From: Clostridia bacterium
GTDB lineage: Bacteria > Bacillota > Clostridia > Christensenellales > Borkfalkiaceae
Direction: 5' to 3'
Assembly (NCBI GenBank): GCA_017462985.1
Contig: JAFTQB010000014.1
Location: 26,071-90,070 of the forward strand
Length of the DNA: 64,000 nucleotides
The first letter of the stretch is position 1; the number at the start of each line of letters is the position of its first letter. Below the pieces are notes generated by a model. It saw only the letters and a program-made list of their open reading frames with translations. It had not been told where the DNA came from and searched no databases. Of this stretch, positions 2,516-51,110 are shown one piece after another. The position numbers and the translations under genes were made by a program.

Positions 2516-3379
2516 TTATCGACCGATAAATATGATACAATACAGCATATACAGCGCGAGAAGAGCGCCCGCAATGCCGAGGATAATCTTCACGCCTTTC
2601 GGAAGCGGCTTTTTTTCGCCCGTCTCCCCGCGGAAGTTTTCTTCCGCAAGCTGAAAGGAAGCAAACGGATTTTTTACAAAAACGCCCGACGTTGCTTGAT
2701 CAAACGAGTTTTTGATTTTGGAAAAATCAATTTTCTCGCCTAGCTTTTTCTCTAACTTTGCAATTTCTTCTCCGTAAAACTCACGCGTATTGCCGTAGTC
2801 GTCTTTCGGCAAATATTTGGGTATCCCCGCATTCACCCTCTGTTCCGCATATTCCGTCGTGGAGGACGCGCCCGACAAATAGAAATCCGCTAAACCACCC
2901 GATCGGTTCATATTGCTGTAAATGGCGTTAAGAGCCGAATAATACGCCGTAGAACCGGGAACCTTATATCTTGGATTTAAAGGGAAATACTCCAAGCGAT
3001 CGTAATATTCCTGCAAGATCGAAAGCGTTTCTTCCGTTTTCGCCGCCAAATGCCGAACCTCGTCCGTATCGCCGAATGCGGCGATCCTGTTTTCCAATTC
3101 TTCAAGCCCTTGCAACATTTCTTGCCTTTGCGCGGCAACGCGATTATACAAGCCCTCCGCCTCTCGTAATTGTCGATCGGCTTGTTCCACCGCCGTAGCG
3201 TATTCGGGCGAGTTTCTCTGCCCCCTGCGCACTCTTTCCGCAAGAGCGGCAATCTCGCTACATTGATCAAAATGTTTTTGATAAAAGGCAAGTACCTTTT
3301 CGTCCACTTCAAACATCAGCATGCCTTCAAAGCGCGCGACGAGCAACGTTACAAGCTCTTTTTGTTGATTTTTCGTCAA
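2516..3379 (-). CDS. Hypothetical coiled-coil protein with a single C-terminal TM anchor
   Basis: The ORF track extends it to 3442. I prefer the TTG start at 3379, which follows AAGGAGG by 8 nt. The C-terminus VKIILGIAGALLALYMLYCIIFIGR is hydrophobic, and the central part is rich in heptad-like E/Q/R/L. I recognise no family. Confidence 0.55.
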   Translation of the reverse strand: MTKNQQKELVTLLVARFEGMLMFEVDEKVLAFYQKHFDQCSEIAALAERVRRGQRNSPEYATAVEQADRQLREAEGLYNRVAAQRQEMLQGLEELENRIAAFGDTDEVRHLAAKTEETLSILQEYYDRLEYFPLNPRYKVPGSTAYYSALNAIYSNMNRSGGLADFYLSGASSTTEYAEQRVNAGIPKYLPKDDYGNTREFYGEEIAKLEKKLGEKIDFSKIKNSFDQATSGVFVKNPFASFQLAEENFRGETGEKKPLPKGVKIILGIAGALLALYMLYCIIFIGR

Positions 3380-3460: not shown

Positions 3461-5563
3461 TTAGTCGTCGTATTTTTCCAAAAGCTTCAAGTCGATGCCC
3501 TTTTCGCCAATCTTGATGATTTCTACTTTCACCTTATCGCCGATATTCAACACGTCTTCCACTTGGTTGACTCTCTTTTCCGAAAGTCTGGAAATGTGCA
3601 CCATGCCGTCCTTGCCGGGAGCGATCTCTACGAACGCGCCTACCTTGGAAAGCACTCTTACGACTTCACCAACGAACATATCGCCCACTTCGGGATCGTG
3701 CGCAATCGATTGAATGATCGCTTTCGCGCGTTCTGCGTTTGCAACGTCGCCAAAGCAAGCTACGCATACCGTACCGTCGTCTTCGATATCGATCTTCGTG
3801 CCCGTTTGTTCGATGATCTTGTTGATAACCTTGCCTTGCTTGCCGACCACGTCGCCGATCTTGTCGGGGCTGATCTGGAAGGTGATGATCTTCGGAGCAT
3901 AATCGGAAAGCTTGGGAGCAACTTCGGGAATGCAGCTGAGCATCTTGCCCAAAATATGCTGACGAGCTTCTTGCGCTTGCGCGATCGCGTCGAGCATGAT
4001 CTCTTTGGAGATCCCTTTGATCTTGATATCCATTTGGATCGCCGTGATACCCTTTTCCGTACCCGCAACCTTAAAGTCCATATCGCCAAGGAAGTCTTCC
4101 AAGCCTTGGATATCCGTCATAATGACGTACTTGCCCGTTTCGGGATCTTTAATAAGACCCATTGCACAGCCTGCTACGGGCGCTTTGATGGGAACGCCTG
4201 CGTCCATGAGCGCCATCGTCGAGCCGCAAACGGAAGCCATCGAGGACGAACCGTTCGAGGACATAATATCCGATACCACGCGGATCGCGTAAGGGAATTC
4301 GTTGGGATCGGGAATGACGGGAACGAGCGCGCGTTCCGCAAGCGCGCCGTGACCGATCTCGCGGCGACCGGGGCTTCTCAATGCCTTTGCTTCGCCCGTG
4401 CAGTAGCCGGGGAAGTTGTATTGGTGCATATATCTCTTTTCTTCTTCCTCGTCAAGGCCTTCCATTCTCTGCGCTTCGCCGAGCATACCCAGCGTACAGG
4501 TGGTGAGGGCTTGCGTTTGACCTCTCGTGAAGATCGCCGAGCCGTGAACGCGGGGCAAAATGCCGTGTTCGCACCAGATAGGACGAACTTCTTTGAGTTT
4601 TCTGCCGTCGGGACGGATCTCGTGATCAAAGATCTTCGCACGAACGATTCCTTTTACGATATAGTAGATGGAATCTTTCACTTCGCGCATTTGATCGGGA
4701 TAAATTTCCGCAAAATGTTCGATGATGTCCGCTTCAGCGGCAGCTTGTCTATCCTGTCTTTCCTGACGGTCGAAGGTATCGAGCGCCGCCACCAATTTAT
4801 CGTAGCCGTACGCTTTTACAGCCGCGTCGAGTTCTTCGGGAATATGGTAAAGCTCCATTTCTTTCTTGGGCTTGCCAACAACTTTTGCGATCTCTTCTAC
4901 GAACGCGCAAACCTTTTTGATCTCTTCATGACCGTACATGATCGCGCCAACCATTTCTTCGTCCGTTACTTCCTTTGCGCCCGCTTCGATCATCAAGATC
5001 GCGTCTTTCGTGCCCGCCAAGGAAAGGTGAATGGTGCTTTGTTCTTTTTGCGCAACCGTGGGGTTGATGATATATTCGCCGTCGATACAGCCCACGATCA
5101 CCGAACCCGTGGGGCCTGCCCAAGGAATATCGGAGATGGAGAGCGCAACGGACGAACCGATCATTGCGATGGGTTCGGGCGCGATATCGGGATCAACGGA
5201 AAGCGCGGTGGCTACCACCACGACGTCGTTGAAAACTCCCTTCGGGAACAGGGGGCGAATGGGACGGTCGATCAAACGGCTGACCAAGATCGCCTTATCC
5301 GAAGCTCTGCCCTCTCTCTTTTTGAAACCGCCGGGGATTTTACCCACAGCGAACATTTTTTCTTCATAATCAACGGAAAGAGGGAAGAAATCCATTCCTT
5401 CTCTGGGCTTTTCCGCCATACAAACGGTAACGTTCACCACCGTATCGCCACAGCGCACCAAGCACGCGCCGTTTGCCTGTTCGGCATACTTGCCGATTTC
5501 CACCACAAGCTCTCTGCCTGCGTAATCAGTCTTAAAGACTTTTGCGTTTTCTAAATTTGGCAT
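3461..5563 (-). CDS. pnp: Polyribonucleotide nucleotidyltransferase (PNPase)
   Basis: 700 aa with two RNase PH-like halves, a KH domain and an S1 tail (GDMFVGEVVRVLSKVGAFVEIAPGKDGMVHISRLS). rpsO lies upstream as in the canonical operon. Confidence 0.97.
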   Translation of the reverse strand: MPNLENAKVFKTDYAGRELVVEIGKYAEQANGACLVRCGDTVVNVTVCMAEKPREGMDFFPLSVDYEEKMFAVGKIPGGFKKREGRASDKAILVSRLIDRPIRPLFPKGVFNDVVVVATALSVDPDIAPEPIAMIGSSVALSISDIPWAGPTGSVIVGCIDGEYIINPTVAQKEQSTIHLSLAGTKDAILMIEAGAKEVTDEEMVGAIMYGHEEIKKVCAFVEEIAKVVGKPKKEMELYHIPEELDAAVKAYGYDKLVAALDTFDRQERQDRQAAAEADIIEHFAEIYPDQMREVKDSIYYIVKGIVRAKIFDHEIRPDGRKLKEVRPIWCEHGILPRVHGSAIFTRGQTQALTTCTLGMLGEAQRMEGLDEEEEKRYMHQYNFPGYCTGEAKALRSPGRREIGHGALAERALVPVIPDPNEFPYAIRVVSDIMSSNGSSSMASVCGSTMALMDAGVPIKAPVAGCAMGLIKDPETGKYVIMTDIQGLEDFLGDMDFKVAGTEKGITAIQMDIKIKGISKEIMLDAIAQAQEARQHILGKMLSCIPEVAPKLSDYAPKIITFQISPDKIGDVVGKQGKVINKIIEQTGTKIDIEDDGTVCVACFGDVANAERAKAIIQSIAHDPEVGDMFVGEVVRVLSKVGAFVEIAPGKDGMVHISRLSEKRVNQVEDVLNIGDKVKVEIIKIGEKGIDLKLLEKYDD

Positions 5564-21257: not shown

Positions 21258-22167
21258 TAATATTTTTAAAAATTTCGATAAAGTGGAAGTGCTCAAAGGC
21301 GTGAGCTGTACGATCGAAAAGGGCGAAAAGGTGGTGATTATCGGTCCGTCGGGGAGCGGAAAAAGCACCCTGCTTCGGTGTATGAACTTGCTCGAAACGC
21401 CCACCTACGGCGAAATTTGGCTGGACGATAAGCTGCTCACCCCCATCGATCCGTATCTGCATTTCGAAGTCATTCGGCTTTCGAATACCTATCGAAAAAT
21501 GATGGAACAAGCCAAAGCGGCTTCCCCTGAAAAAACGGAAGAAGAATTAGATCAAGAAATCATCCAAAAGATCAAAGCGGAAGATCTTTTAAAAAAGCAC
21601 GAGGGCAAGGAATACAAAGAAGAAATTCGCCGCCTGTTCAAGCAAAGCTATATCGATATCAATCTCGCGCGGCAAAAAATGGGTATGGTGTTCCAACATT
21701 TTAACCTGTTCAATAATTTGACGGTGCTGAAAAATCTCACTCTCGCGCCCGTAATGCTCAAACTAAAAACCAAGGAAGAAGCGGAAGCAAAAGCAATGGA
21801 ACTACTCCGCCGTATCGGGTTGGAGGATAAAGCAAACGCCTACCCCGCCACCCTTTCGGGCGGTCAAAAACAGCGTATCGCGATCATTCGCGCGCTCGCG
21901 ATGGAACCGGACGTAATGCTCTTTGACGAACCGACGAGCGCGCTCGATCCCGAAATGGTGGGCGAAGTGCTCGCGCTGATGAAGCAAGTTGCCGACGAGG
22001 GAATGACGATGGTGATCGTAACGCACGAAATGGGCTTTGCCAAGGAAGTGGCTTCGCGGATCATCTTTATGGACGACGGGAAGATCAAGGAAGAAAACAC
22101 TCCGACGGAATTTTTCGAACGTCCGAAAAACGAACGCTTGCAAGAATTTTTATCAAAGGTTTTATAA
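21244..22167 (+). CDS. Amino-acid ABC transporter ATP-binding protein with a roughly 69-aa insertion between the Walker A region and the Q-loop
   Basis: GPSGSGKST Walker A, LSGGQKQR signature, [11 protein letters not shown] Walker B. The GTG start at 21244 follows AAAGGAGG and overlaps the permease stop. Insertion residues are IDPYLHF...RRLFKQSY. Confidence 0.9.
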
Positions 22168-22171
22168 AAAT

Positions 22172-22209
22172 AAAAACGAGCGGAAGCGCAATGCTTCCGC
22201 TCGTTTTTT
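22172..22209. terminator. Bidirectional intrinsic terminator
   Basis: AAAAACGAGCGGAAGC-gcaat-GCTTCCGCTCGTTTTTT sits between convergent operons. Confidence 0.85.
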
Positions 22210-22239
22210 CTTTATCGATCGCCAAAGGCAATCCTTTCT

Positions 22240-26146: not shown

Positions 26147-26405
26147 GCAGTGAATAGATTGCAAAAGCAATCGTGAATCGCCGCGCGCAGAGCCTGCGCC
26201 CCCAAGCGGTCGTTTTCAATTACGGTTTATAGCAGCTTCCGCATATGTCGAAAAGCTCACCCGTACCGTCATTGCGAAGGAGCGATAGCGACTGCGGCAA
26301 TCTCGTTTTAATGATTGCATTATTATTTATGAGATTGCCGCGCTACGACAGTTTTAAAATTCTTCCGCACTTCTTCACTATTACTTATTACCTATTACCT
26401 ACTAC
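26147..26405. repeat. Composite palindromic element, locus A (degenerate copy)
   Basis: GTGAATag+ATTGCaaaaGCAAT and GTGAATcg+GCGCAGagcCTGCGC units. A 37-mer, GTCATTGCGAAGGAGCGATAGCGACTGCGGCAATCTC (26268-26304), is identical to 36343-36379. The partner GAGATTGCCGCG lies at 26331-26342. Four tandem heptamers YTAYTAC lie at 26378-26405. Confidence 0.8.
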
Positions 26406-28834: not shown

Positions 28835-28873
28835 TCAACAAAATAATAAATAAAAAACCTTCCTAAATTCACG

Positions 28874-28910
28874 AAAAGCCCACCGAAAATTTTCGGTGGG
28901 CTTTTCTTTT
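28874..28910. terminator. Bidirectional intrinsic terminator
   Basis: AAAAGCCCACCGAAAA/TTTTCGGTGGGCTTTTCTTTT. Confidence 0.85.
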
Positions 28911-28922
28911 TTGAAACCGTAA

Positions 28923-29759
28923 TTATACCAAGCTCGTTTTATTCAAGATAAGGTTGCTGACCGCGCCCAGCCCTACGCTGAACAGCGCGCCGCCCGCAAA
29001 ACACATTACGATATTTACGAGATTCGAATCGAGGGGCGTGATCATCGGGATCATTGAAAACAGCAGCATGCTCGCGCCGAGCGAGCCAATGATCGAAAGC
29101 CAGCTTTTTTGCTTCGCCGCAACGCTCACGGCAAGGAAGATCGCAACGAACACCGCCATTAAGAACACTTTTGATACGATACAGGCAACAAGCTCTCCCG
29201 CCGTCGCTTCCGTTTCAAAGGGAAGCCCCGCCACCGCGCCGCCAATCATTCCGCCCAAGAAAAAGCAAAGGAGCATCAACGCGCCGCCGACGAACCCAAC
29301 CAAGGTTTTCGAGATCACGTAATCGGTTTTCTTCGCGCGGACGGTGAAAAGGTTTTTCGCATAGCCGCTTCTAAAATCCTCGGAAACGAAAAGGCAAACG
29401 AGCACCGCCGCCAAAAAGTATACGAGATTGATATTGCACATGGTCGTCAAGCTCATGCCGCCCGCCATGCCCGAGGCCGCGTCGCCGCTCACCGAGCCGA
29501 TGATCTGCCAAACGTTCTCAAACGCTTCCATTGGAGCGGTCGCGTCTACGCCGGGATGCGGCGTGACGGCGCTCGTTACGGCGACGGGATCCGCAGGTTC
29601 CCCCATCATCGTGGTCATCACGAGAACCAAAATCGGAATGACGAACGAAACGCCTAGCATGATATAAAGGAGCGGCGTTGTGAACATTCTTCGAAAATCC
29701 ACTTTCAACATACTTTTCAGCCGTTTCCCAAAACCTTGGGATTCAAATTTCGCTTCCAT
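28923..29759 (-). CDS. ABC-2 type transporter permease (module 2)
   Basis: 278 aa, 6 predicted TMs, start/stop coupled to the upstream ATPase. Confidence 0.75.
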   Translation of the reverse strand: MEAKFESQGFGKRLKSMLKVDFRRMFTTPLLYIMLGVSFVIPILVLVMTTMMGEPADPVAVTSAVTPHPGVDATAPMEAFENVWQIIGSVSGDAASGMAGGMSLTTMCNINLVYFLAAVLVCLFVSEDFRSGYAKNLFTVRAKKTDYVISKTLVGFVGGALMLLCFFLGGMIGGAVAGLPFETEATAGELVACIVSKVFLMAVFVAIFLAVSVAAKQKSWLSIIGSLGASMLLFSMIPMITPLDSNLVNIVMCFAGGALFSVGLGAVSNLILNKTSLV

Positions 29760-30661
29760 TATCTTCCCTCCTTTTCATTCATCAGATCGATATAATATTC
29801 TTCCAAACCGATTTTCGCCGTTTTGATCTCGCTCACCAAAATACCGTTTTTATATAACAGGCTGACGATCGCTTCGGGCGCTTCCGCGTCGTACACGCGA
29901 AGATACTCGTTTTCTTCCGCCACGCGGGAATATCTGCAAGAAAGAATCGCTTTCGCGCGCGATAATTCTTTCGTTTGCAAAGCGACGTAGGTGCGGCAGC
30001 CCGCGTCCAATTCTTCGGCGGTCATCTCCTTGATCATTTTCCCGCCGCGGATAATGCCGTAATGCGTGGCGATCTTTTCCAGCTCGCCCAAAATATGCGA
30101 CGAGATCAACACCGTACAGCCGTGATCTTTCGCCAACCCCACGAGCACCTCGCGCATGATCCGCATCCCGTCCGCGTCCAAGCCGTTGATCGGCTCGTCG
30201 AGTACCAACAGCTTCGGGTTTCCAAGCAGCGCCATAGCGATTCCAATCCGCTGTTTCATCCCCAACGAACAGTTTTTGTATTTATTCGAAGCCGCGCCTT
30301 CCATTCTGACGAGTTTCAACACTTTTCGCACTTCGTCCTCGGCATTTTCGATACTCAAATTGGCGGCTTGAAGCATTAAGTTGTTCCACACGCTGTAATT
30401 GGGGAAGCAACCGGGGGCTTCGATCAAAACGCCCACCTTTGCCCGCACGTCCCCGTCCGTATAATCTCTGCCAAAGAGCTTAATTTGCCCGCCGCTCAAC
30501 GGCAACAGCCCGCAGATCATCTTTTCCGTCGTGGATTTTCCGCTGCCGTTTTCACCGATAAAACCGTAGATCGCGCCCACGGGAACGGTCATATCCAAAC
30601 CGCAAACGGCTTGCTTTTCGCCGAAGTTTTTCGTTAAATCTCTAATTTCTATCGCGTTCAC
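29759..30661 (-). CDS. ABC transporter ATP-binding protein, ABC-2/BcrA-like (module 2)
   Basis: GENGSGKST Walker A, CSLGMKQR signature, LVLDEPINGLD Walker B. It is a paralog of 31493..32395. Confidence 0.9.
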   Translation of the reverse strand: MNAIEIRDLTKNFGEKQAVCGLDMTVPVGAIYGFIGENGSGKSTTEKMICGLLPLSGGQIKLFGRDYTDGDVRAKVGVLIEAPGCFPNYSVWNNLMLQAANLSIENAEDEVRKVLKLVRMEGAASNKYKNCSLGMKQRIGIAMALLGNPKLLVLDEPINGLDADGMRIMREVLVGLAKDHGCTVLISSHILGELEKIATHYGIIRGGKMIKEMTAEELDAGCRTYVALQTKELSRAKAILSCRYSRVAEENEYLRVYDAEAPEAIVSLLYKNGILVSEIKTAKIGLEEYYIDLMNEKEGR

Positions 30662-30676
30662 AGTTGCGTCCTCCCA

Positions 30677-31492
30677 TCAATATACGTCGCTTTTATAAAG
30701 CACGAGCGTACCCAGCAGATTATACACGAACGACCAAGCCGCCGAAACCGCAAGGCACACGAGTACGGTGAGGATATCGCTTGAAAGACACGCGTATACC
30801 GACGAGCCGTACAGGAAGATATTGAGGATCGGGGAATTTTGCAAGACCGCGCCCAAGCCGACGATCAAAATTCCCGTGCCGAAGAAGAAGGACGAAGCGA
30901 TCGAAATCCCGAAATATTTTCTGAAAATGATATTCAAAAAGGTATACAAGCTCGCCCAACCGAGGCTCATGACCATTTTTCCCAAGATCGCACAGATCAA
31001 CGAATAGGCGTTCACCTCGAACGAAGCGCCCACGAGCAGACCGGATACGATCACGCCGAGCAAATAAGTAATACACATACACGCCATCGCAAACGCGCAG
31101 GAAAGCGTTTTCGAGATCATATAATCCTGCTTTTTCGCGTGCGTGGTGAAAAGCTGTTTTACGTATCCGCTTTTATAATCGTGCCCGATAAAGATGGATA
31201 CCATGATCCCGCCGAAGATGAACACCATATTCATATTGGCGTACTGCCCCATCTCTTCAAAGGTATACAGGGGCGTTCCCACGGCGATCGCTTCCCAAGC
31301 CGTATCGTAAAGCGGCTCCGCGCCTTCCGCGCCGACCATTCCCAAGATCATCGCGGGAATGATCGCGGCGATACACAAAAAGATATAAAACAGCGGCGTG
31401 TGAAACAAACGGTAGAAATCCACGCCCAACATCCCCTTTAAACGCTTGAAAAAGCTCGGGGATTCAAATGTTAATTCGCGCCCTTCTTCCAT
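30677..31492 (-). CDS. ABC-2 type transporter permease (module 1)
   Basis: 271 aa, 6 predicted TMs, abutting the upstream ATPase stop. Confidence 0.75.
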   Translation of the reverse strand: MEEGRELTFESPSFFKRLKGMLGVDFYRLFHTPLFYIFLCIAAIIPAMILGMVGAEGAEPLYDTAWEAIAVGTPLYTFEEMGQYANMNMVFIFGGIMVSIFIGHDYKSGYVKQLFTTHAKKQDYMISKTLSCAFAMACMCITYLLGVIVSGLLVGASFEVNAYSLICAILGKMVMSLGWASLYTFLNIIFRKYFGISIASSFFFGTGILIVGLGAVLQNSPILNIFLYGSSVYACLSSDILTVLVCLAVSAAWSFVYNLLGTLVLYKSDVY

Positions 31493-32395
31493 TTATTCCG
31501 CCTCCTTTTTCGACATCAACTCGATATAGTATTCTTCCAAACCGATCTTGTTCTTTCTCACCTCGCAAACGGCGTGTCCGTTCACGAGCAGGTATTCCAC
31601 GATCGTTTCGGGTTCGTCCACGTCGTATACGCGAAGCGTTTCTTCCTCTTCCTTCACGACGGCGAATTTTTCCTGCAACAGCTTTTTCGCGCCCTTCATA
31701 TCCCGCGTTTTCACCGAAACGAAAACGCGTGCGCGGCTTTCCATTTCCTGCGCGCTGATCTCTTGGATCATTCTGCCTTGGCGAATAATGCCGTAATGGG
31801 TGGCGATCTTTTCCAGCTCGCCCAAGATATGCGACGAAATCAACACCGTCGTGGAATATTTTTGCGTGATCTCCACGAGGATCTCCCGCATCATCTTCAT
31901 TCCTTCCGCGTCCAAGCCGTTGATCGGCTCGTCCAAGATCAACAACGCGGGATCGCCAAGGAGCGCCATGGCTATGCCGATACGCTGTTTTTGCCCCAGC
32001 GAACAGCTTTTGAATTTCTTGCGCGCAGAATCCTGCATACGCACGATCTTCAATACGCGGTCGATCTCGGCTTCGGGATTTTCCAATCCTAAATTGATGG
32101 CTTGCATCATCAGGTTATCGAACACGCTGGAGCTTGGAAAGCACCCTGCATTTTCGATGAGCGCGCCCACGCGCACCCTCACGCCCGCGTCCGTAAATTC
32201 CCTGCCGAACAGCTTGATCTCGCCCGAATCGGGAACGAGGTGTCCGCAGATCAATTTTTCCGTCGTGGATTTTCCGCTTCCGTTTTCACCGATAAACCCG
32301 TAGATCGCCCCGACGGGAACGGTCATATTCAAACGATCGATGGCGTACATTCCGCGAAAACTTTTCGATAGATTTCTAATTTCGATAGCGTTCAT
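31493..32395 (-). CDS. ABC transporter ATP-binding protein, ABC-2/BcrA-like (module 1)
   Basis: GENGSGKST, CSLGQKQR, LILDEPINGLD. Its first 43 codons are duplicated at 35847-35975. Confidence 0.9.
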   Translation of the reverse strand: MNAIEIRNLSKSFRGMYAIDRLNMTVPVGAIYGFIGENGSGKSTTEKLICGHLVPDSGEIKLFGREFTDAGVRVRVGALIENAGCFPSSSVFDNLMMQAINLGLENPEAEIDRVLKIVRMQDSARKKFKSCSLGQKQRIGIAMALLGDPALLILDEPINGLDAEGMKMMREILVEITQKYSTTVLISSHILGELEKIATHYGIIRQGRMIQEISAQEMESRARVFVSVKTRDMKGAKKLLQEKFAVVKEEEETLRVYDVDEPETIVEYLLVNGHAVCEVRKNKIGLEEYYIELMSKKEAE

Positions 32396-32503
32396 TTTTT
32401 CGCCTCCCTTATTTTTACCCGTTCATTATACCTTTTTGATGTTTTTAAAAAGCCGTCGTTCCGTAAGTATTTTGTAATTTTTTTGTTAAAATTTTGTAAG
32501 CGC

Positions 32504-32536
32504 AAAAAAAACGCCCGTTGCAAACGGACGCTTTTT
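32504..32536. terminator. Intrinsic terminator hairpin (bidirectional; the longer U-tract is on the minus strand)
   Basis: A8-CGCCCGTTgcAAACGGaCG-CTTTTT. Confidence 0.65.
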
Positions 32537-32561
32537 CAATATAATCCCTTGCCGTCACCCA

Positions 32562-32836
32562 CGAAAAAGCAAAGCGACTGCGGCAAATGTGACATGATTT
32601 GTGAATTGATTGCCATTCGGCAATCGTGAATTGCGCCGAACGGCGCGTGAATTGAAAAACGTTCGTTTTTCGTGAATTGCCGCCCTTGGCGGCGTTATGG
32701 AAATATTCTATGAGATTGCCGCGCTTCACTTTGTTTCGCTCGCAATGACGGTTACAAGGTGTCATTGCGAAAGAGCGATAGCGACTGCGGCAATCTCGTA
32801 TAAATCTCAGCCGCAACGCAGAGCGTTGCAATTCAC
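32562..32836. repeat. Composite palindromic element, locus B (right arm truncated by the insertion)
   Basis: GTGAATTG at 32601, 32626, 32647 and 32672, each with its own hairpin. Central hairpin 32712-32797. One right-arm unit, GCAACGCagaGCGTTGC+AATTCAC (32813-32836). Confidence 0.85.
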
Positions 32837-33157
32837 CTCTTTGTAATAATATGATATCAAAGTAAAGCTATTAACTCTATTCAAACGGCTTTAAATAGAG
32901 AACAAAGGCATATTGTTGTTGAAATGGCAGCAGGAACCGGAAAAGGGATAGTGTTTGCCAAAATAGTAGAGTTCTTACAGCAAACAAAAAACTATAAGTA
33001 TGAAAGCGTTAACGCTTTCATACAGAAACTACACGAATACATCTACTATTACAACAACCAAAGAATCTCATTAAAATTGAAAATGAGTCCGGTACAATAC
33101 CGAACTCAGTTCCAATACAATTAATTTAATTTTTTTGTCTAAACTTTTGGGTTCACA
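32837..33157 (+). mobile_element. 3'-terminal remnant of an IS3-family (IS150-like) insertion sequence
   Basis: It encodes a transposase C-terminal fragment and ends in TTTTTTGTCTAAACTTTTGGGTTCACA (33131-33157). The complement TGTGAACCCAAAAGTTTAGACA looks like an IS3-family terminal inverted repeat starting TG. The 5' two-thirds of the IS are absent. Confidence 0.6.
32924..33124 (+). pseudogene. IS3-family transposase (OrfB, rve domain), C-terminal fragment
   Basis: ESVNAFIQKLHEYIYYYNNQRISLKLKMSPVQYRTQ matches the conserved C-terminal tail of IS150-group transposases (..YI.YYN..RI.LKLKG.SPV.YR). Confidence 0.7.
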
Positions 33158-33187
33158 TCATCCGTGCTTGCTCTTCCTTTTTTAGCA

Positions 33188-35428
33188 TTATCTCTTAAAG
33201 ATATAATTCCAATGTGTTTCCGTCAAATAGTCTGCCGCTACGGCGGGGTCGCTCATATCCACATTCGTGCCTTCGGTGGTACTACTTTCATATACATAAT
33301 ACCACCCTGTGGTGCTGATGTTGATAGCACTGAGGCTTGTGCAGCCGTAAAATGCCCGCCTGCCAATGGAGTTGACACTTTGAGGAATGGTCACGCTGTT
33401 AAGAGAGGTACAACCATGGAAGGCATACCCATCAATGGTGACGACCCCATCTTGCATGGTTACCTCGGTAAGTGCGGTGCATCCAGAGAATGCGTAATCG
33501 CCAATGGTGCTCACACTGCCAGGAATGGTCATAGTTTTGATGGATGTGCACCCCTTGAACGCGGAAGAACCAATCTCGGTCAAATCGTTAGGCAAAATGA
33601 TTTCGGTCAAGGTTGTGCATCCATTAAAAGCAGAGTCGGAGAGGACACTCCCACCTGTGATGGTGACAGAGGTGAGGCTGGCGGGGATACGACCGCCTTG
33701 GTTAGAGGCAAAACCTGCACCAAAAATATATCCAAAATAGGTGTTATTCACACCGTCTTTGGTATTCCCCACAAAGGGAATAGTCATGGTCTTAATAGAT
33801 GTGCACCCTTTGAAAGCGGAAGCACCGATGGCGGTCACACTTTTGGGAATGGTCACCGACTGCAGACGCTCACAACCCAAAAATGCTTCTTTGCCAATGC
33901 TTTCTAGTTCTTCTTCCATATTCACAACAGAAAGCCATGTACAGCCGTAAAAAGCGGCGTCTTCAATGCTTTTCACACTTTTTGGAATAGAAACGGAGGA
34001 AAGCCCTGTGCAACCATAGAAGGCATACTTGCACACTTTTTCCGTATCATCGGAAATGGTCAAGTTCTGTGCTTCTTCGCCTTTCAAATATAGTTTTCCA
34101 GCATAGTAGAGAGGGTTGGCAGTTTCGCTCGCAAATGAGGTTTCGCACCACGCCCGCAAGTCGCTGATATATACCGCCCCCAAAGATGTGCAATCTCCAA
34201 AGGCACCAGATCCAATGCTGGTCACACTAGCGGGGATGGTGATTCTTTTAATGGAAGTGCAGTTTTCAAAGGCACGCATACCAATGGTGGTGCCACCTGT
34301 GACGGTCACCGTTTCAAGGGTGCTGGGCACATAATTTTTGTGAGCGGTAATACCGCAGTCAAAGAGGTATCCAAAGTTGCCGTTGCTAATGTCACCATCG
34401 ACCGCTCCAACAAAGGGGATGGTGATGGTTTCAAGAGCCTCACAACCACGGAAGACAGCCCGACCAATGCGAGTGACACTGTCGGGAATGGTGACCGCTT
34501 TAAGCGACACGCAATGGTAGAATACGTAATCACCAACTTCGTTCATGTCTTTGGGGAATGTGACACTGCTTACTTCCCTGTCATTTTTATAAAGACGCTT
34601 TCCAAAGCAAAGGGGATTGGCAGTTTCACTTTCAAAGGTGATTCTGCACCACGCTTCCAAGTCACTGATATGTACCGCTGTTAGAGATGTGCACTCCTCA
34701 AATGCTCCCTCACCGATATGCTCCACGGTGTCAGGGATGGTGATGGAAGAAATAGATGTGCAGTCACGGAAGGCATACCGCTCAATACGAGTGCATTCCG
34801 TGAGAACTACAGTAGTGAGGCTGTCGGGAACATATTCGCTATGATTTGGAGAGCCGAAAGCACCAAAGATATAACCAAAATGATATTCCTCGTCTTCATC
34901 CTCTAGAGCACGCCCCGCAAAAGGCAGGGTGATGCTTTCCAGACCCACACAATCCCCAAAGGCACGGAACTCAATGCGTTCCACACTGTTAGGGACCACA
35001 ACAGAGGTCAGATTTGCACATCCATAAAACGCCTCTTCCTCAATATAAAGAAGGGTGTCGGGCAGGGTCACTTCGGTCAAAGTGGTATCATTTGCAAAAG
35101 CACCATACCCAATACCAACCACCGTGTACCCATCAATTTCGGCGGGTACATCTACTTTCCCTTTTGCAAGGGTTGCCTCTGTAATGATGCAGGTGTCATC
35201 CTCACCAACAGTGTAGGTAAAAGGTTGTTCTGGCTCCTCTGGGATCTCTTCCTCTATGATTTCATCACATCCATCACACACCTTGTAATGATGAATGCCG
35301 TCATAGGAGTCATACCAGTCACTCCAATTGTGGGTGTGGGGTTCCTCGGGTGTCCCAAAACAAGCTGTCAAACAAAGGGATAACATCATCATAAGGCCCA
35401 ACAGTGCCACATATTTCATGCGTACCAT
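33188..35428 (-). CDS. BspA-type leucine-rich-repeat (LRR_5-like) surface lipoprotein
   Basis: Signal peptide plus lipobox (LSLCLTAC). More than 15 repeats of the pattern F.gC..L.sv.IP.SV..IG..AF.gC. Codon usage visibly differs from the neighbours, with few NCG codons. Confidence 0.85.
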   Translation of the reverse strand: MVRMKYVALLGLMMMLSLCLTACFGTPEEPHTHNWSDWYDSYDGIHHYKVCDGCDEIIEEEIPEEPEQPFTYTVGEDDTCIITEATLAKGKVDVPAEIDGYTVVGIGYGAFANDTTLTEVTLPDTLLYIEEEAFYGCANLTSVVVPNSVERIEFRAFGDCVGLESITLPFAGRALEDEDEEYHFGYIFGAFGSPNHSEYVPDSLTTVVLTECTRIERYAFRDCTSISSITIPDTVEHIGEGAFEECTSLTAVHISDLEAWCRITFESETANPLCFGKRLYKNDREVSSVTFPKDMNEVGDYVFYHCVSLKAVTIPDSVTRIGRAVFRGCEALETITIPFVGAVDGDISNGNFGYLFDCGITAHKNYVPSTLETVTVTGGTTIGMRAFENCTSIKRITIPASVTSIGSGAFGDCTSLGAVYISDLRAWCETSFASETANPLYYAGKLYLKGEEAQNLTISDDTEKVCKYAFYGCTGLSSVSIPKSVKSIEDAAFYGCTWLSVVNMEEELESIGKEAFLGCERLQSVTIPKSVTAIGASAFKGCTSIKTMTIPFVGNTKDGVNNTYFGYIFGAGFASNQGGRIPASLTSVTITGGSVLSDSAFNGCTTLTEIILPNDLTEIGSSAFKGCTSIKTMTIPGSVSTIGDYAFSGCTALTEVTMQDGVVTIDGYAFHGCTSLNSVTIPQSVNSIGRRAFYGCTSLSAINISTTGWYYVYESSTTEGTNVDMSDPAVAADYLTETHWNYIFKR

Positions 35429-35846
35429 CTCATATCCTCCTAAGATGTATTTGTGCTCTTTCTTAAAATTAGTATATCATACCTTCAAAAAAATGTAAAC
35501 ACCGTGCAAGTATATAAGTATCGTCATCTTCCTCACCGTGGTCTTCTCCCAACTGCCCCTTGACATTTGGGTCAAACGCATCAAAGCCCATTGGAAATCC
35601 AAAAAGAACTAATATTATTTTATTATAGCACAAAATTGGTGATTTGTAAATCCCTTTTACTATGCACCTCAAAAAAATTACAATATTATTTCAATCAAAA
35701 ATTATATCATACTCAAGATGATCTAATGAAAATGCTTAAATCTCCAAGTGACAACCCGGCAGACCATCTCTTGACTAAGTTGGAAGAGTTCCTAATGGGG
35801 ATAAGCAAATAAACCAATATCACTAAATACAATTTTTACACGGCGA

Positions 35847-35975
35847 GGATTTTCCGCTGCCGTTTTCACCGATAAACCCGTAGATCGCCCCGACGGGAAC
35901 GGTCATATTCAAACGATCGACGGCGTACATTCCGCGAAAACTTTTCGATAGATTTCTGATTTCGATAGCGTTCAT
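35847..35975 (-). pseudogene. Truncated duplicate of the ABC-2 ATPase 5' end (codons 1-43, through Walker A)
   Basis: MNAIEIRNLSKSFRGMYAVDRLNMTVPVGAIYGFIGENGSGKS, then unrelated SPCKNCI*. The upstream RBS and -10 region are duplicated too. Confidence 0.85.
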
Positions 35976-36083
35976 TTTTTCGCCTCCGTTATTTTTACCC
36001 GTTCATTATACCTTTTTGATGTTTTTAAAAAGCCGTCGTTCCGTAAGTATTTTGTAATTTTTTTGTTAAAATTTTGTAAGTGC

Positions 36084-36116
36084 AAAAAAACGCCCGTTGC
36101 AAACGGACGCTTTTTT
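36084..36116. terminator. Intrinsic terminator hairpin downstream (minus sense) of palindromic element locus C
   Basis: A7-CGCCCGTTgcAAACGGaCG-CTTTTTT. It gives a T7 tract on the minus strand and T6 on the plus strand. Confidence 0.65.
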
Positions 36117-36141
36117 CAATATAATCCCTTGCCGTCACCCA

Positions 36142-36483
36142 CGAAAGAGCGATAGCGACTGCGGCAAATGTGACATGATTTGTGAATTGATTGCCATTCG
36201 GCAATCATGAATTGCGCCGAACGGCGCGTGAATTGAAAAACGTTCGTTTTTCGTGAATTGCCTCCTTCGGCGGCGTTATGGAAATATTTTTATGAGATTG
36301 CCGCGCTTCACTTTGTTTCGCTCGCAATGACGGTTAGAAGGTGTCATTGCGAAGGAGCGATAGCGACTGCGGCAATCTCGTATAAATCTCAGCCGCAACG
36401 CCGCCCTATGGCGGCAATTCACGCGCGAAGCGCAATTCACTGAGCGTTAGCGAAAATTCACGCTTGCATAGTAAGCAATTCAC
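36142..36483. repeat. Composite palindromic element, locus C (most complete copy); candidate structured non-coding RNA or protein-binding array
   Basis: Left arm: 4 x (GTGAATTG + private hairpin), 36182-36274. Central hairpin: 36294-36379. Right arm: 4 x (private hairpin + CAATTCAC), 36400-36483. Confidence 0.85.
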
Positions 36484-36558
36484 TACTTATTTCCCTTCTT
36501 TTCATTTCTTCTTTTGAGAGTATACTTCTCGCTCCTTTGTTTTTATCTGTATGGTAAA

Positions 36559-36587
36559 ATTGTACCACTCTTAATAAAAAAAGTCAA
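36559..36587 (-). promoter_or_regulatory. Near-consensus extended -10 promoter firing into palindromic element locus C
   Basis: On the minus strand, TTGACT (36587-36582), a 17-nt spacer, then TGgTACAAT (36567-36559). Confidence 0.65.
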
Positions 36588-36618
36588 TCCGTCCGCTACT
36601 TCGGACGGAATATTTTTT
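36588..36618. terminator. Hairpin plus T-run separating the divergent promoters (insulator or terminator)
   Basis: TCCGTCCG-ctactt-CGGACGGA followed by ATATTTTTT. Confidence 0.35.
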
Positions 36619-36645
36619 GCTATATTCTACAATTTGTATATAAAG

Positions 36646-36679
36646 CGTTCTAAATACAGAACGTTTCGAATACAGGACG
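36646..36679 (+). promoter_or_regulatory. Candidate operator region ahead of the second XRE gene
   Basis: Inverted repeat CGTTCT-N6-AGAACG (36646-36663). Direct 11-mers AATACAGAACG (36653-36663) and AATACAGGACG (36669-36679). Confidence 0.35.
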
Positions 36680-36691
36680 GAGGATATTGCA

Positions 36692-36934: not shown

Positions 36935-36981
36935 CAAAAAAGAGCTATATTGATAAAAATTTATCAATATAGCTCTTTTTT
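36935..36981. terminator. Bidirectional intrinsic terminator
   Basis: AAAAAAGAGCTATATTGATAAA..TTTATCAATATAGCTCTTTTTT (16-bp stem). Confidence 0.85.
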
Positions 36982-51053: not shown

Positions 51054-51110
51054 AAAAAAAGAGGCGCTGAAATTTGCTATTCGTGCAAATTTCAGCGCCG
51101 TTCTTTTTTG
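51054..51110. terminator. Bidirectional intrinsic terminator
   Basis: A-run, GGCGCTGAAATTTGC-tattcgt-GCAAATTTCAGCGCC, then TTCTTTTTT. Confidence 0.85.

Follow-up and report, generated by a model that had tools for sequence, protein, structure and literature searches.

On balance, we favour the reading that the ladder-like palindrome described here is a lineage-specific intergenic mosaic of Ssn-type single-stranded DNA (ssDNA) hairpin repeats, similar to BIMEs and NIMEs, at a site where a gene was lost. The element consists of two head-to-head repeats, or boxes, between two mirrored arms in which a constant octamer alternates with small hairpins of differing sequence. It is absent from related loci, its flanking expression signals are inherited from neighbouring genes, and its boxes belong to a repeat that is found on both sides of GIY-YIG nuclease genes in other genomes. 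All coordinates refer to the window, i.e. the whole 64-kb stretch of DNA that was analysed.

Composition of the arms

A preliminary description of this locus (locus A) had reported four octamers with private hairpins on either side of a central hairpin. The octamer positions were exact: GTGAATTG lies on the plus strand at 36182, 36228 and 36253 and its variant ATGAATTG at 36207, and in the inverted arm the reverse complement of GTGAATTG ends at 36422, 36440 and 36483 and the variant AAATTCAC at 36461. The arms and their hairpins are as follows.

36182..36274, plus strand: left arm, four times GTGAATT (one of them ATGAATT), each leading into G-stem-loop-stem-C, with no two stems alike
36394..36483, minus strand: right arm, four minus-strand units of GTGAATT(G/T) plus hairpin, of which all but R3 fold
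L1, left arm: hairpin of 7 bp
L2, left arm: hairpin of 6 bp
L3, left arm: hairpin of 8 bp
L4, left arm: hairpin of 6 bp, fully paired in paralogue B but with one T.C mismatch in locus A
R1, right arm: hairpin of 6 bp
R2, right arm: hairpin of 4 bp
R4, right arm: hairpin of 6 bp with one G.T pair

Seven of the eight octamers abut a different small hairpin, in agreement with the preliminary description, but the right arm holds three such hairpins and not the four claimed for it, R3 (36441-36453) having none. Each arm hairpin starts with the last G of the octamer and ends in C. In random 12-18-nt pieces of the window, end-to-end pairing of at least 6 bp occurs with p ~6e-4, so that the hairpin pattern is far beyond chance. 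The same holds for the octamer, which has 11 exact copies in the window against 2.2 expected; none of 100 shuffles reached 11, and all 11 copies are confined to two loci. The octamers are spaced by 25, 21 and 25 bp in the left arm and by 18, 21 and 22 bp in the right arm. All nine distinct units differ in their stems, and six of them contain GTGAATTGC. The stem GCCGCC/GGCGGC is common to L4 and R1, and R2 resembles L2 with a central deletion, as expected from a mirrored duplication. In addition, GCAACGC (36394-36400) can pair with GCGTTAGC (36444-36451) around R1 and R2. The earlier statement that the array is non-random, and that plain duplication does not explain different perfect hairpins beside an unchanged 7-8-mer, is borne out by these data.

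The ladder sequence is identical in an independent assembly (L125). L125-L127 derive from the samples ERZ28654276, ERZ28654306 and ERZ27256823; three assemblies end within the ladder, which may reflect differing unit numbers, inversion between L and R octamers or a coverage artefact. The ladder region is non-coding, as had been noted, with the XRE gene on one side and the ancestral ABC-2 operon on the other. The previously noted 15-codon open reading frame is present and lacks a good ribosome binding site (RBS), and a Pfam search of the ORFs inside the ladder gave no match.

36458..36505, minus strand (read 36505..36458): 15-codon ORF (MKRREISSELLTMQA), probably not a gene

The central boxes belong to a repeat found across phyla

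Both stems previously assigned to the central hairpin exist, at 36294-36304/36369-36379 and 36322-36331/36343-36352. The earlier view that the element belongs to no known class does not hold for this part, since the hairpin consists of two head-to-head copies of a repeat that occurs across phyla, GTCATTGCGA...GCAATCY, of the family that flanks Ssn-type GIY-YIG nuclease genes. Three boxes were recognised in and next to the ladder.

36343..36379, plus strand: box 1, GTCATTGCGAAGGAGCGATAGCGACTGCGGCAATCTC, head to head with box 2
36294..36331, minus strand: box 2, reading GTCATTGCGAGCGAAACAAAGTGAAGCGCGGCAATCTC on the minus strand, 92% identical to plasmid copies (Fischerella, Hymenobacter)
36136..36168, plus strand: degenerate third box (GTCACCCACGAAAGAGCGATAGCGACTGCGGCAAA) with 26 nt in common with box 1

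An exact 21-mer of box 1 is present in 10 metagenome contigs of unrelated organisms, and a BLAST comparison of the whole element with plasmids and phages gave matches to the box arm only. A literature search for the box sequence and its would-be encoded peptides yielded only primers and noise. The boxes at 36343-36379 (+), 36294-36331 (-), 32761 (+), 32712 (-) and 26268 (+) read (C/G)GTCATT...AATCTC(G/A), and the central boxes carry the flanks of Ssn-type motifs, CGTCATT upstream and AATCYRG downstream. They also have the size (20-50 nt) and the predicted fold of a hairpin in ssDNA: single boxes fold through ATTGC/GCAAT at -3.6 to -5.0 kcal/mol (DNA parameters) and the doublet at -27 kcal/mol. 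Among 29 distinct boxes, a subset has a clear private inner hairpin (GGCCA/TGGCC, GTGCC/GGCAC, GGTAC/GTACC). As boxes thus combine constant flanks with variable inner hairpins, the arms of the ladder resemble small boxes that have been truncated. The hairpins of L1 and C1 equal the box terminus, GATTGC(C)...(G)GCAATC, and are the only arm stems that do so. Arm units read GTGAATT plus G-stem-loop-stem-C and do not have the box flanks (GTCATTGC...GCAATC) at both ends; since their heptamer is not GTCATT and the 3' GCAATC is missing, they resemble the box but are not demonstrably homologous to it.

Association of the boxes with GIY-YIG nuclease genes

Ssn nucleases and their hairpin motifs were first described in 2025 (Chenal et al., PMC11893778). 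These enzymes bind NTS hairpins in ssDNA only and cut just upstream; no activity was detected on dsDNA or RNA, and activity depends on an oriented upstream sequence (PMC11893778). The same authors described the gene arrangement NTS-ssnA-NTS (Chenal et al. 2025, PMC11893778). At one box-bearing locus (L084), the gene with boxes on both sides encodes a protein of 95 aa whose sole domain is GIY-YIG (Pfam PF01541, E 9e-14), and four further homologue contexts, from Rickettsiella, Rickettsia, Afipia and a marine genome, all show the order box(+), gene, box(-). Thus, in five of five contexts tested (L084, L133-135, L136, L137/138, L139), a gene for a single-domain GIY-YIG protein of about 95 aa has a box on both sides.

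The flanks of the boxes, CGTCATT...AATCY(N)G, are in line with the NTS as published, CGTCATTCCCGCGMAVGCGGGAATCYRG (PMC11893778), and the boxes resemble NTS and SRM elements in being hairpin-forming, intergenic, clustered and placed on both sides of the small nuclease genes. They differ in their stem, which is ATTGC/GCAAT as compared to ATTCCCGC/GCGGGAAT in NTS, and in their long (8-40 nt) and variable interior; the GTGAATT-plus-hairpin arm units are not described in PMC11893778. The published SRM pattern, HGTCWYN(0-2)YYVSBRHN(0-5)WNVSBRGN(0-2)RNCYNB (PMC11893778), gave no match in the window (0.7 expected in shuffles) and none in 12 box-bearing loci (L081-L090, L123, L124). A tblastn search found no GIY-YIG gene in the 64-kb window, and no octamer-type array was found beside the boxes of the other 19 loci. 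We counted these three results, i.e. the failure of the SRM pattern, the lack of a nuclease gene in the window and the lack of arrays beside other boxes, against the reading of the ladder as Ssn-type repeats.

Flanking signals are inherited from neighbouring genes

The following signals and genes surround the ladder.

36529..36609, minus strand: relic ypsA expression signals, with the RBS at 36537..36529, TG-TACAAT and TTGACT at 36587..36559 and a hairpin at 36588-36609
36097..36125, plus strand: promoter-like TTGCAA-17-TATAAT pointing into the ladder, recognised by consensus match alone and absent from the preliminary description
36084..36116, both directions: two-way terminator-like hairpin with A/T runs, stem 36091-36105, immediately ahead of the promoter region that belongs to the ABC operon
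36005..36080, minus strand: own promoter region of the ABC-2 operon, outside the ladder, with two TTACAAAAT repeats (reading ATTTTGTAA at 36049 and 36071 on the plus strand) and TATAAT at 36010..36005
36646-36663, plus strand: palindrome CGTTCTGTATTTAGAACG, likely the XRE operator, also palindromic in L128
36692-36925, plus strand: XRE gene

The minus-strand promoter reported for the ladder, TTGACT-17-TACAAT with TG (36587..36559), is present but is not the ladder's own; it is a relic of ypsA. Positions 36530-36690 align with the ypsA-XRE intergenic region of relatives (L128, L129), including TTGACT, the -10 element, the hairpin and the RBS CAAAGGAGC. In these relatives ypsA is retained opposite XRE, but the window contains no ypsA coding sequence, from which it follows that the promoter was inherited from a lost gene. 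Inside the ladder, no remnants of ypsA or of the genes upstream of orthologous ABC loci were found. The hairpin at 36588-36609, a second two-way hairpin, had escaped the preliminary description.

Similarly, the reported terminator exists as a hairpin with a T-run (36091-36116) but does not belong to the ladder. At the corresponding position, several orthologous ABC loci carry a terminator hairpin, which belongs to an upstream gene and lies just upstream of a conserved TTACAAAAnnTTAACAAAA...TATAAT promoter, which is also kept in the window. This promoter region is the sole part of the intergenic region that is similar to orthologous loci. Since the operon has a conserved promoter of its own below the terminator hairpin, the ladder does not qualify as a cis-regulatory leader or riboswitch of the ABC-2 operon, and it is absent at 80 orthologous loci.

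Distribution of the ladder and its paralogous copies

Upstream of these 80 orthologous ABC ATPase genes, a screen by octamer count, by any 7-mer together with its reverse complement and by blastn revealed no ladder, octamer array or XRE gene. Five loci of two XRE homologues (70% and 74% identity) contained no ladder either, and a detector for a constant 7-mer with different spacers, applied to about 0.7 Mb of fetched loci, found only this element. The only other copies are a paralogue and a decayed copy, both in the window, which thus holds two independent ladder-type sites and no solo units.

32555..32836, plus strand: locus B, a paralogous copy of 96% identity; the duplication is 32252-32819 = 35830-36401
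26150..26344, plus strand: locus C, an independent copy in decay, situated after the cls stop codon and before the cls terminator

Locus B has the left arm and the two boxes but only one right unit, whose hairpin differs (GCAACGC-AGA-GCGTTGC+AATTCAC), this clean hairpin replacing R1 and R2. An IS fragment and an LRR gene lie downstream, and a spurious 128-aa ORF spanning the locus had no homologues in the protein database. Locus C contains GTGAATAG+GATTGCAAAAGCAATC, GTGAATCG plus a hairpin and remnants of L3 and L4; its box 1 is intact (26268-26304) and its inverted box is truncated (26331-26344).

Comparison with other repeat systems

Like the BIMEs and REPs of enterobacteria and the REPINs associated with RAYT transposases, the ladder is built from small extragenic palindromes that alternate in orientation and are combined into mosaics; its doublet core, in the manner of a REPIN, forms a long hairpin, and a conserved 5' single-stranded tag stands beside the hairpins. 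However, REP stems are conserved within a family whereas those of the ladder are private, and its tag is GTGAATT instead of GT[AG]G; the element thus has neither the REP tag nor a family-wide conserved palindrome. Inspection of the window's ORF list (housekeeping genes and one IS3-like fragment) showed no Y1 transposase. Neisseria NIMEs are arrays of repeat units bounded by dRS3/NTS, with a constant palindrome and a variable part of 50-150 bp. The ladder shares with them the alternation of a constant short motif with variable segments, the clustering beside membrane-protein genes and local rearrangement, but its constant part is a linear 7-8-mer and its variable part a 12-18-nt hairpin.

The alternation of a constant repeat with unique inserts of similar length recalls CRISPR as a formal analogy only. 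CRISPR repeats are at least 23 nt long and in one orientation, with unique 26-40-nt spacers and usually cas genes, whereas here an 8-nt repeat alternates with palindromic inserts of 12-18 nt in a mirrored array; Rfam and repeat tools gave no CRISPR signal, and no cas-like ORF was seen in the window's ORF list. MITE-type ends, GTGAATTGATTGC and GTGAATTGCTTAC, match at 11 of 13 positions, no target-site duplication is recognisable and the sole independent copy, locus C, is decayed. Viral contigs with three spaced copies of GTGAATTG were also considered, and all 32 matches were plain tandem repeats with identical spacers and unrelated to the ladder.

Alternative explanations

The most credible alternative, which we nevertheless regard as unlikely, is a neutral by-product without protein partner or function. 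On this view, an inverted duplication arose long ago at a rearrangement junction, and central deletions together with template-switch 'quasipalindrome correction' have kept it rich in hairpins. It is established that template switching can perfect quasipalindromes, which counts in favour of this reading, as do the clean deletion in locus B that left a new perfect hairpin, the decay of locus C, the restriction of the element to one lineage and the rearranged state of the region (duplication, IS fragment, loss of ypsA). Drift, however, should erode the octamers as much as the spacers, yet six of the eight ladder octamers are exact and the other two are off by a single base between arms that are only ~70% complementary; both central boxes, moreover, still match copies in other phyla, either exactly or at 92% identity. 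Eight near-identical octamers beside fully diverged spacers imply continuing constraint or homogenisation, and to regard the element as purely selfish or neutral does not suffice to explain why the octamers stay constant.

Less likely again, and offered here as a speculation, is that GTGAATT plus any hairpin constitutes a recognition grammar, i.e. a shape next to a short single-stranded tag, in which the stem may have any sequence. The reader would be a putative ssDNA-specific enzyme (Ssn-like GIY-YIG or HUH) or an RNA-binding protein, and the mirrored 4+4 array around the box doublet would be a functional unit and not debris, for example a programmed single-strand cleavage/recombination site or a multivalent RNA scaffold.

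A functional structured non-coding RNA, either a ~470-nt minus-strand transcript or a plus-strand one (36125-36620), folded into a rod of 8-bp rungs with side hairpins and serving as a regulator or protein sponge, appears improbable. The folding check proposed in the preliminary description showed both strands to be far more stable than shuffles (z about -8), and near-consensus promoters and hairpin terminators are found on both strands; good folding of both strands is, however, expected of any palindromic DNA, and the promoter and terminator are inherited from neighbouring genes. The proposed rod was recovered in part, with two or three of the four octamer rungs present in minimum-energy folds. 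All rungs carry one sequence, which argues for recognition of that sequence or a repeat-generating process rather than for the suggested selection on freely covarying helices; identical rungs also invite misfolding in the wrong register, and there is no covariation. For 36176-36490, the fold of the plus strand is favoured over that of the minus strand by 8.6 kcal/mol, and where helices contain non-Watson-Crick pairs (R4; 36293/36380; in locus B, the outer pair of H1), the plus strand has G.T. As an indicator of the transcribed strand, this G.T versus A.C asymmetry was discarded, since three informative pairs, all G.T on plus, are too few to decide and the L4 mismatch is T.C. Against an RNA also stand the decay of locus C and the loss of three rungs in locus B, as well as the lack of any Rfam family: a search of the whole window against Rfam 15 gave nothing at the gathering threshold, the best sub-threshold match having E >=0.6 (searched to E 10), and box-bearing loci gave rRNA and tRNA matches only. 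The idea of a conserved structured RNA is weakened by the absence of homologues at the 80 + 5 related loci, the very outcome that the preliminary description had named beforehand as speaking against it.

It is very improbable that GTGAATTG is the half-site of a regulator, such as the adjacent XRE protein or a regulator of the ABC operon, which binds the array cooperatively as dsDNA. A strictly conserved sequence with variable spacers between two regulated transcription units, with some spacings of 21 bp or two helical turns, would suit an operator array, but the spacings as a whole do not place the sites on one helix face and such an array gives no reason for every spacer being a hairpin. Furthermore, the XRE gene has its own conserved 18-bp palindrome (36646-36663), common to L128, which has no octamers; the loci of the two XRE homologues (70% and 74% identical) lack the array, and the ABC promoter motif conserved in orthologues is TTACAAAAnnTTAACAAAA and not the octamer. 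Serial insertion with target-site duplication was rejected for the arms, as there are N and not N+1 octamers per N hairpins and both arms run on after the last hairpin with CGTT..GG instead of an octamer.

Proposed origin and significance

When the ladder is read as a mosaic of Ssn-type hairpin repeats, its core is the head-to-head doublet and one degenerate third copy of GTC-ATTGC-(variable interior)-GCAAT-CY. The arms would be truncated mini-units, in which GTGAATTGC, a probable variant of the oriented 5' flank GTCATTGC of the box, precedes a small hairpin whose sequence appears to be free, as is that of the inner hairpin in full boxes. The element may have arisen by inverted duplication of a half-element, a box followed by four units, with subsequent local deletion and hairpin turnover, and its site may be the rearrangement junction at which ypsA was lost. 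We infer that the units act, or once acted, as ssDNA hairpin sites for an Ssn-like enzyme encoded elsewhere in the genome, and such sites would make the locus prone to rearrangement. A transcript from the relic ypsA promoter would be a by-product, stopped by the old terminator before it reaches the ABC promoter.

These results show that the published search pattern misses a large GCAAT-type class of Ssn-type motifs, which was seen on cyanobacterial and Bacteroidota plasmids, in Alphaproteobacteria, in Rickettsiella and in this gut Clostridia genome. The locus shows such a motif building a mirrored mosaic together with a simpler unit consisting of a tag and any hairpin, a grammar of heptamer plus hairpin that is mildly novel. 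If the arm units are enzyme substrates, they would define a minimal rule for ssDNA recognition, which would be useful for the ssDNA tools proposed by the authors of the Ssn study. If they are not, the ladder would be a clear case of palindromic repeats that mimic an RNA gene by means of a promoter and a terminator borrowed from lost or neighbouring genes.

Composition and folding of the ladder

The ladder, a mirrored element of octamers and hairpins, is present in 36142-36587 with the octamers at the places first described. At its main copy (locus A), the left arm carries, on the plus strand, GTGAATTG exactly at 36182, 36228 and 36253 and ATGAATTG at 36207, and the right arm carries the reverse complement of GTGAATTG ending at 36422, 36440 and 36483 and AAATTCAC ending at 36461. 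The window holds 11 exact octamer copies versus 2.2 expected, a number reached by no shuffle, and all 11 are confined to two loci. Each hairpin starts with the last G of the octamer and ends with the C directly ahead of the next one. A private hairpin had been proposed for every octamer; it was found in all units except R3.

Hairpins of the left-arm (L) and right-arm (R) units
L1: 7 bp
L2: 6 bp
L3: 8 bp
L4: 6 bp, perfect in the paralogue but mismatched once (T.C) in locus A
R1: 6 bp
R2: 4 bp
R4: 6 bp including one G.T

For random pieces of the window of 12-18 nt, end-to-end pairing of at least 6 bp has p ~6e-4. Using DNA energy parameters, GTGAATT was single-stranded in the folds of all units but R3. 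Both ladder strands fold with z about -8. Pairing between the octamers of the two arms is predicted in part, as the minimum-energy folds contain two or three rungs out of the proposed four. The arms are only ~70% complementary, yet one sequence is kept in all eight octamers, which favours sequence recognition or homogenisation and speaks against the rungs having been selected as helices: rungs under such selection could covary, and differing rungs would fold more reliably.

Further copies in the window

Two further copies were found.

32555-32836: locus B, part of a 96% duplication (32252-32819 = 35830-36401)
26150-26344: locus C, between the cls stop codon and the cls terminator

The duplication takes in the 5' end and first codons of the ABC ATPase gene and most of the ladder. 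Where the right side of locus A reads GCAACGC + R1 + R2 + ...GAGCGTTAGC, locus B has GCAACGC-AGA-GCGTTGC-AATTCAC; the enclosed units were deleted, which left a new perfect 7-bp hairpin before AATTCAC. Locus C retains a first unit, GTGAATAG + GATTGCAAAAGCAATC, a second octamer, GTGAATCG, followed by a different hairpin, what can still be recognised of L3 and L4, now unable to fold, and one intact and one truncated inverted copy of the central box described below. Since locus C lies at a separate place, the family is dispersed (two independent sites in 64 kb), and the deletion in locus B and the remnants in locus C mark it as prone to deletion and decay. Outside these loci, the window has no solo units.

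The block inserted between the duplicate copies (32837-35829) contains the C-terminal part of an IS3-type transposase (32924-33124) and a gene for a 746-aa lipoprotein-like leucine-rich-repeat (LRR) protein (33188-35428, minus strand). The ABC-2 operon (28923-32395, minus strand) encodes ATPase and permease twice (29661-30675 versus 31382-32408, 70% DNA identity), the product of an old tandem duplication. Perfect or near-perfect palindromes of 34-57 nt between convergent or adjacent genes (36936-36981, 28873-28906, 945-985, 22164-22215 and 51055-51109) are probably ordinary two-way terminators.

Origin of the flanking signals

The minus-strand promoter TTGACT-17-(TG)TACAAT, the hairpin 36588-36609 and the RBS CAAAGGAGC can be aligned to the ypsA-XRE intergenic region of two relatives with an XRE protein 70% identical (L128 and L129), in which ypsA (PF06908) begins directly after the counterpart of this RBS. 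No trace of ypsA is left in the window, and the homology ends at ~36528. The promoter taken for the ladder's own is thus inherited, and so is the terminator: in several orthologous ABC loci, a co-directional gene upstream ends in a terminator hairpin, after which come conserved TTACAAAAnnTTAACAAAA and TATAAT, and the window retains this TTACAAAAnnTTAACAAAA/TATAAT promoter (36005-36080) below the hairpin 36084-36116, as the only intergenic part similar to these loci. With a relic promoter on one side and an old terminator on the other, 36117-36528 (~410 nt) is new DNA. A plus-strand promoter-like site at 36097-36125, the mirror image of the minus-strand one, shows how easily such signals arise in an AT-rich, palindromic setting.

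TTACAAAAnnTTAACAAAA (36040-36080 in the window, where two TTACAAAAT copies are 22 nt apart) stands ahead of TATAAT in many orthologues of the ABC-2 operon, from different Clostridia families; in L006, L012, L025, L044 and L057 it lies ~60-110 nt before the start of the ATPase gene. It has the look of an activator or operator site that these operons share. Also conserved is the hairpin that separates the promoters of ypsA and XRE (36588-36609 versus L128 ~3895-3916), but with its 6-nt loop reverse-complemented (CTACTT versus AAGTAG), as if flipped between its own inverted arms. Downstream of ypsA, L128 has a tandemly duplicated, hairpin-rich intergenic element of ~290 nt (2565-3162), unrelated in sequence to the ladder; the relatives gather structured repeats of their own around the ypsA neighbourhood.

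Restriction to one species

Among 80 species-level relatives with an ABC ATPase at 77-85% identity, none had the octamer, another 7-mer arranged as in the ladder, blastn similarity to the ladder or an XRE gene upstream of the ATPase gene. In the five loci retrieved for two XRE homologues (70-74% identity), ypsA takes the place of the ladder, and a general detector ('constant 7-mer, different spacers') run on all fetched DNA returned no other element. The ladder has been seen in one species only: besides the window, in L125 and at the ends of L126 and L127; the identical sequence in the independent assembly L125 means that it is no assembly chimera. L125 begins at window position 36208, and L126 and L127 both at 36458, so that three contigs of independent assemblies break within the ladder and two share one breakpoint. 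Strains may differ in the number or orientation of their units, or the palindrome may be hard to assemble.

Central boxes and GIY-YIG nuclease genes

The stems described for the central hairpin match exactly, and its arms are one 37-38-nt element present twice in opposite orientation.

36343-36379, plus strand: box 1, GTCATTGCGAAGGAGCGATAGCGACTGCGGCAATCTC
36331..36294, minus strand: box 2, GTCATTGCGAGCGAAACAAAGTGAAGCGCGGCAATCTC
36136-36168: degenerate third box

A 21-mer of box 1 was matched exactly in 10 metagenome contigs whose source organisms are evidently unrelated, and box 2 has 92% identical copies on a Fischerella and a Hymenobacter plasmid. In one locus (L084), boxes stand on both sides of a gene for a 95-aa single-domain GIY-YIG protein (Pfam E 9e-14), whose closest solved structures are the UPF0213 proteins BH0048 and EF2693. 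For homologues of this protein in four further contexts (a marine genome, Rickettsiella viridis, Rickettsia and Afipia), box(+) upstream and box(-) downstream were found in 4/4. The preliminary description had placed the element in no known class; its central boxes do have relatives.

Around the marine gene (L133-L135, ~1250-1500 and ~1790-2050), boxes form tandem degenerate runs (...GCAATCTGCGAGGTATCAATAGTTAT...); arrays of decayed boxes beside the nuclease gene may be common. L084, from an unrelated organism, has a single GTGAATTG at 5020-5030, with a box 20 nt upstream of it and an ABC ATPase gene just downstream (chance ~7% across the loci examined). On the Fischerella plasmid (L123, 1350-1410), two copies of another hairpin repeat (GGTGGGCAATGCCCACC) adjoin a box doublet, different small palindromic families thus co-locating.

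SsnA, a 94-aa single-domain GIY-YIG enzyme, binds the NTS hairpin (CGTCATTCCCGCGMAVGCGGGAATCYRG) only in single-stranded DNA and cuts just upstream of it, requiring an oriented upstream flank (Chenal et al. 2025, PMC11893778). The arrangement NTS-ssnA-NTS (PMC11893778) has the same architecture as box(+)-GIY-YIG gene-box(-). NTS and boxes have the flanks CGTCATT...AATCY(N)G in common, whereas the boxes differ by their ATTGC/GCAAT stem and long variable interior, and the published SRM pattern did not match them. We therefore class the boxes as a GCAAT-type relative of Ssn-related motifs, outside SRM as now defined.

A subset of 29 distinct boxes has a clear small private hairpin inside constant flanks (e.g. 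GGCCA/TGGCC, GTGCC/GGCAC, CGCGC/GCGCG and GGTAC/GTACC). The arm-unit GTGAATTGC is similar to GTCATTGC of the boxes, with the private hairpin directly after it in the arms, and the L1 and C1 hairpins are GATTGC(C)...(G)GCAATC, i.e. a self-folded box terminus. Judged by this resemblance, the arm units may be the box grammar in reduced form. They lack the 3' GCAATC flank, and no ladder-like arrays were seen adjoining boxes in other loci. L4 and R1 have the stem GCCGCC/GGCGGC in common and R2 resembles L2 minus its central part (a deletion); the arms have the appearance of a mirrored duplication with later divergence.

Interpretation

We lean towards reading the ladder as a mosaic of Ssn-type ssDNA hairpin motifs that inverted duplication and local turnover built at a rearrangement junction; ypsA loss, the A/B duplication, the IS3-like fragment (32924-33124) and the inserted LRR gene are signs of this junction. 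Observed directly were the composition of the ladder, its confinement to one lineage, the inheritance of its flanking signals and, in other genomes, the association of boxes with nuclease genes; beyond these, inverted duplication would have given the mirrored form and local turnover would have followed. A cognate small GIY-YIG nuclease would be encoded elsewhere in the genome, with the boxes, and perhaps also the arm units, as its substrates in single-stranded DNA; any transcription that starts at the relic promoter would be incidental.

A neutral palindromic by-product would account for turnover and decay, but it leaves the intact octamers and boxes unexplained and seems unlikely. A functional ladder RNA is more doubtful still, as all that speaks for it are the folding energies and three G.T pairs in favour of the plus strand; the idea of a conserved RNA gene fails on its absence from the 80 ABC loci and 5 XRE-homologue loci and on the inherited promoter and terminator. 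An operator array is very improbable, given the unfitting octamer-to-octamer spacings (25, 21 and 25 bp on the left; 18, 21 and 22 bp on the right) and the separate conserved palindrome of XRE at 36646-36663.

The ladder is real and unusual in form, a new version of an already known element type, and the heptamer-plus-any-hairpin unit is the part that may go beyond the known kinds.
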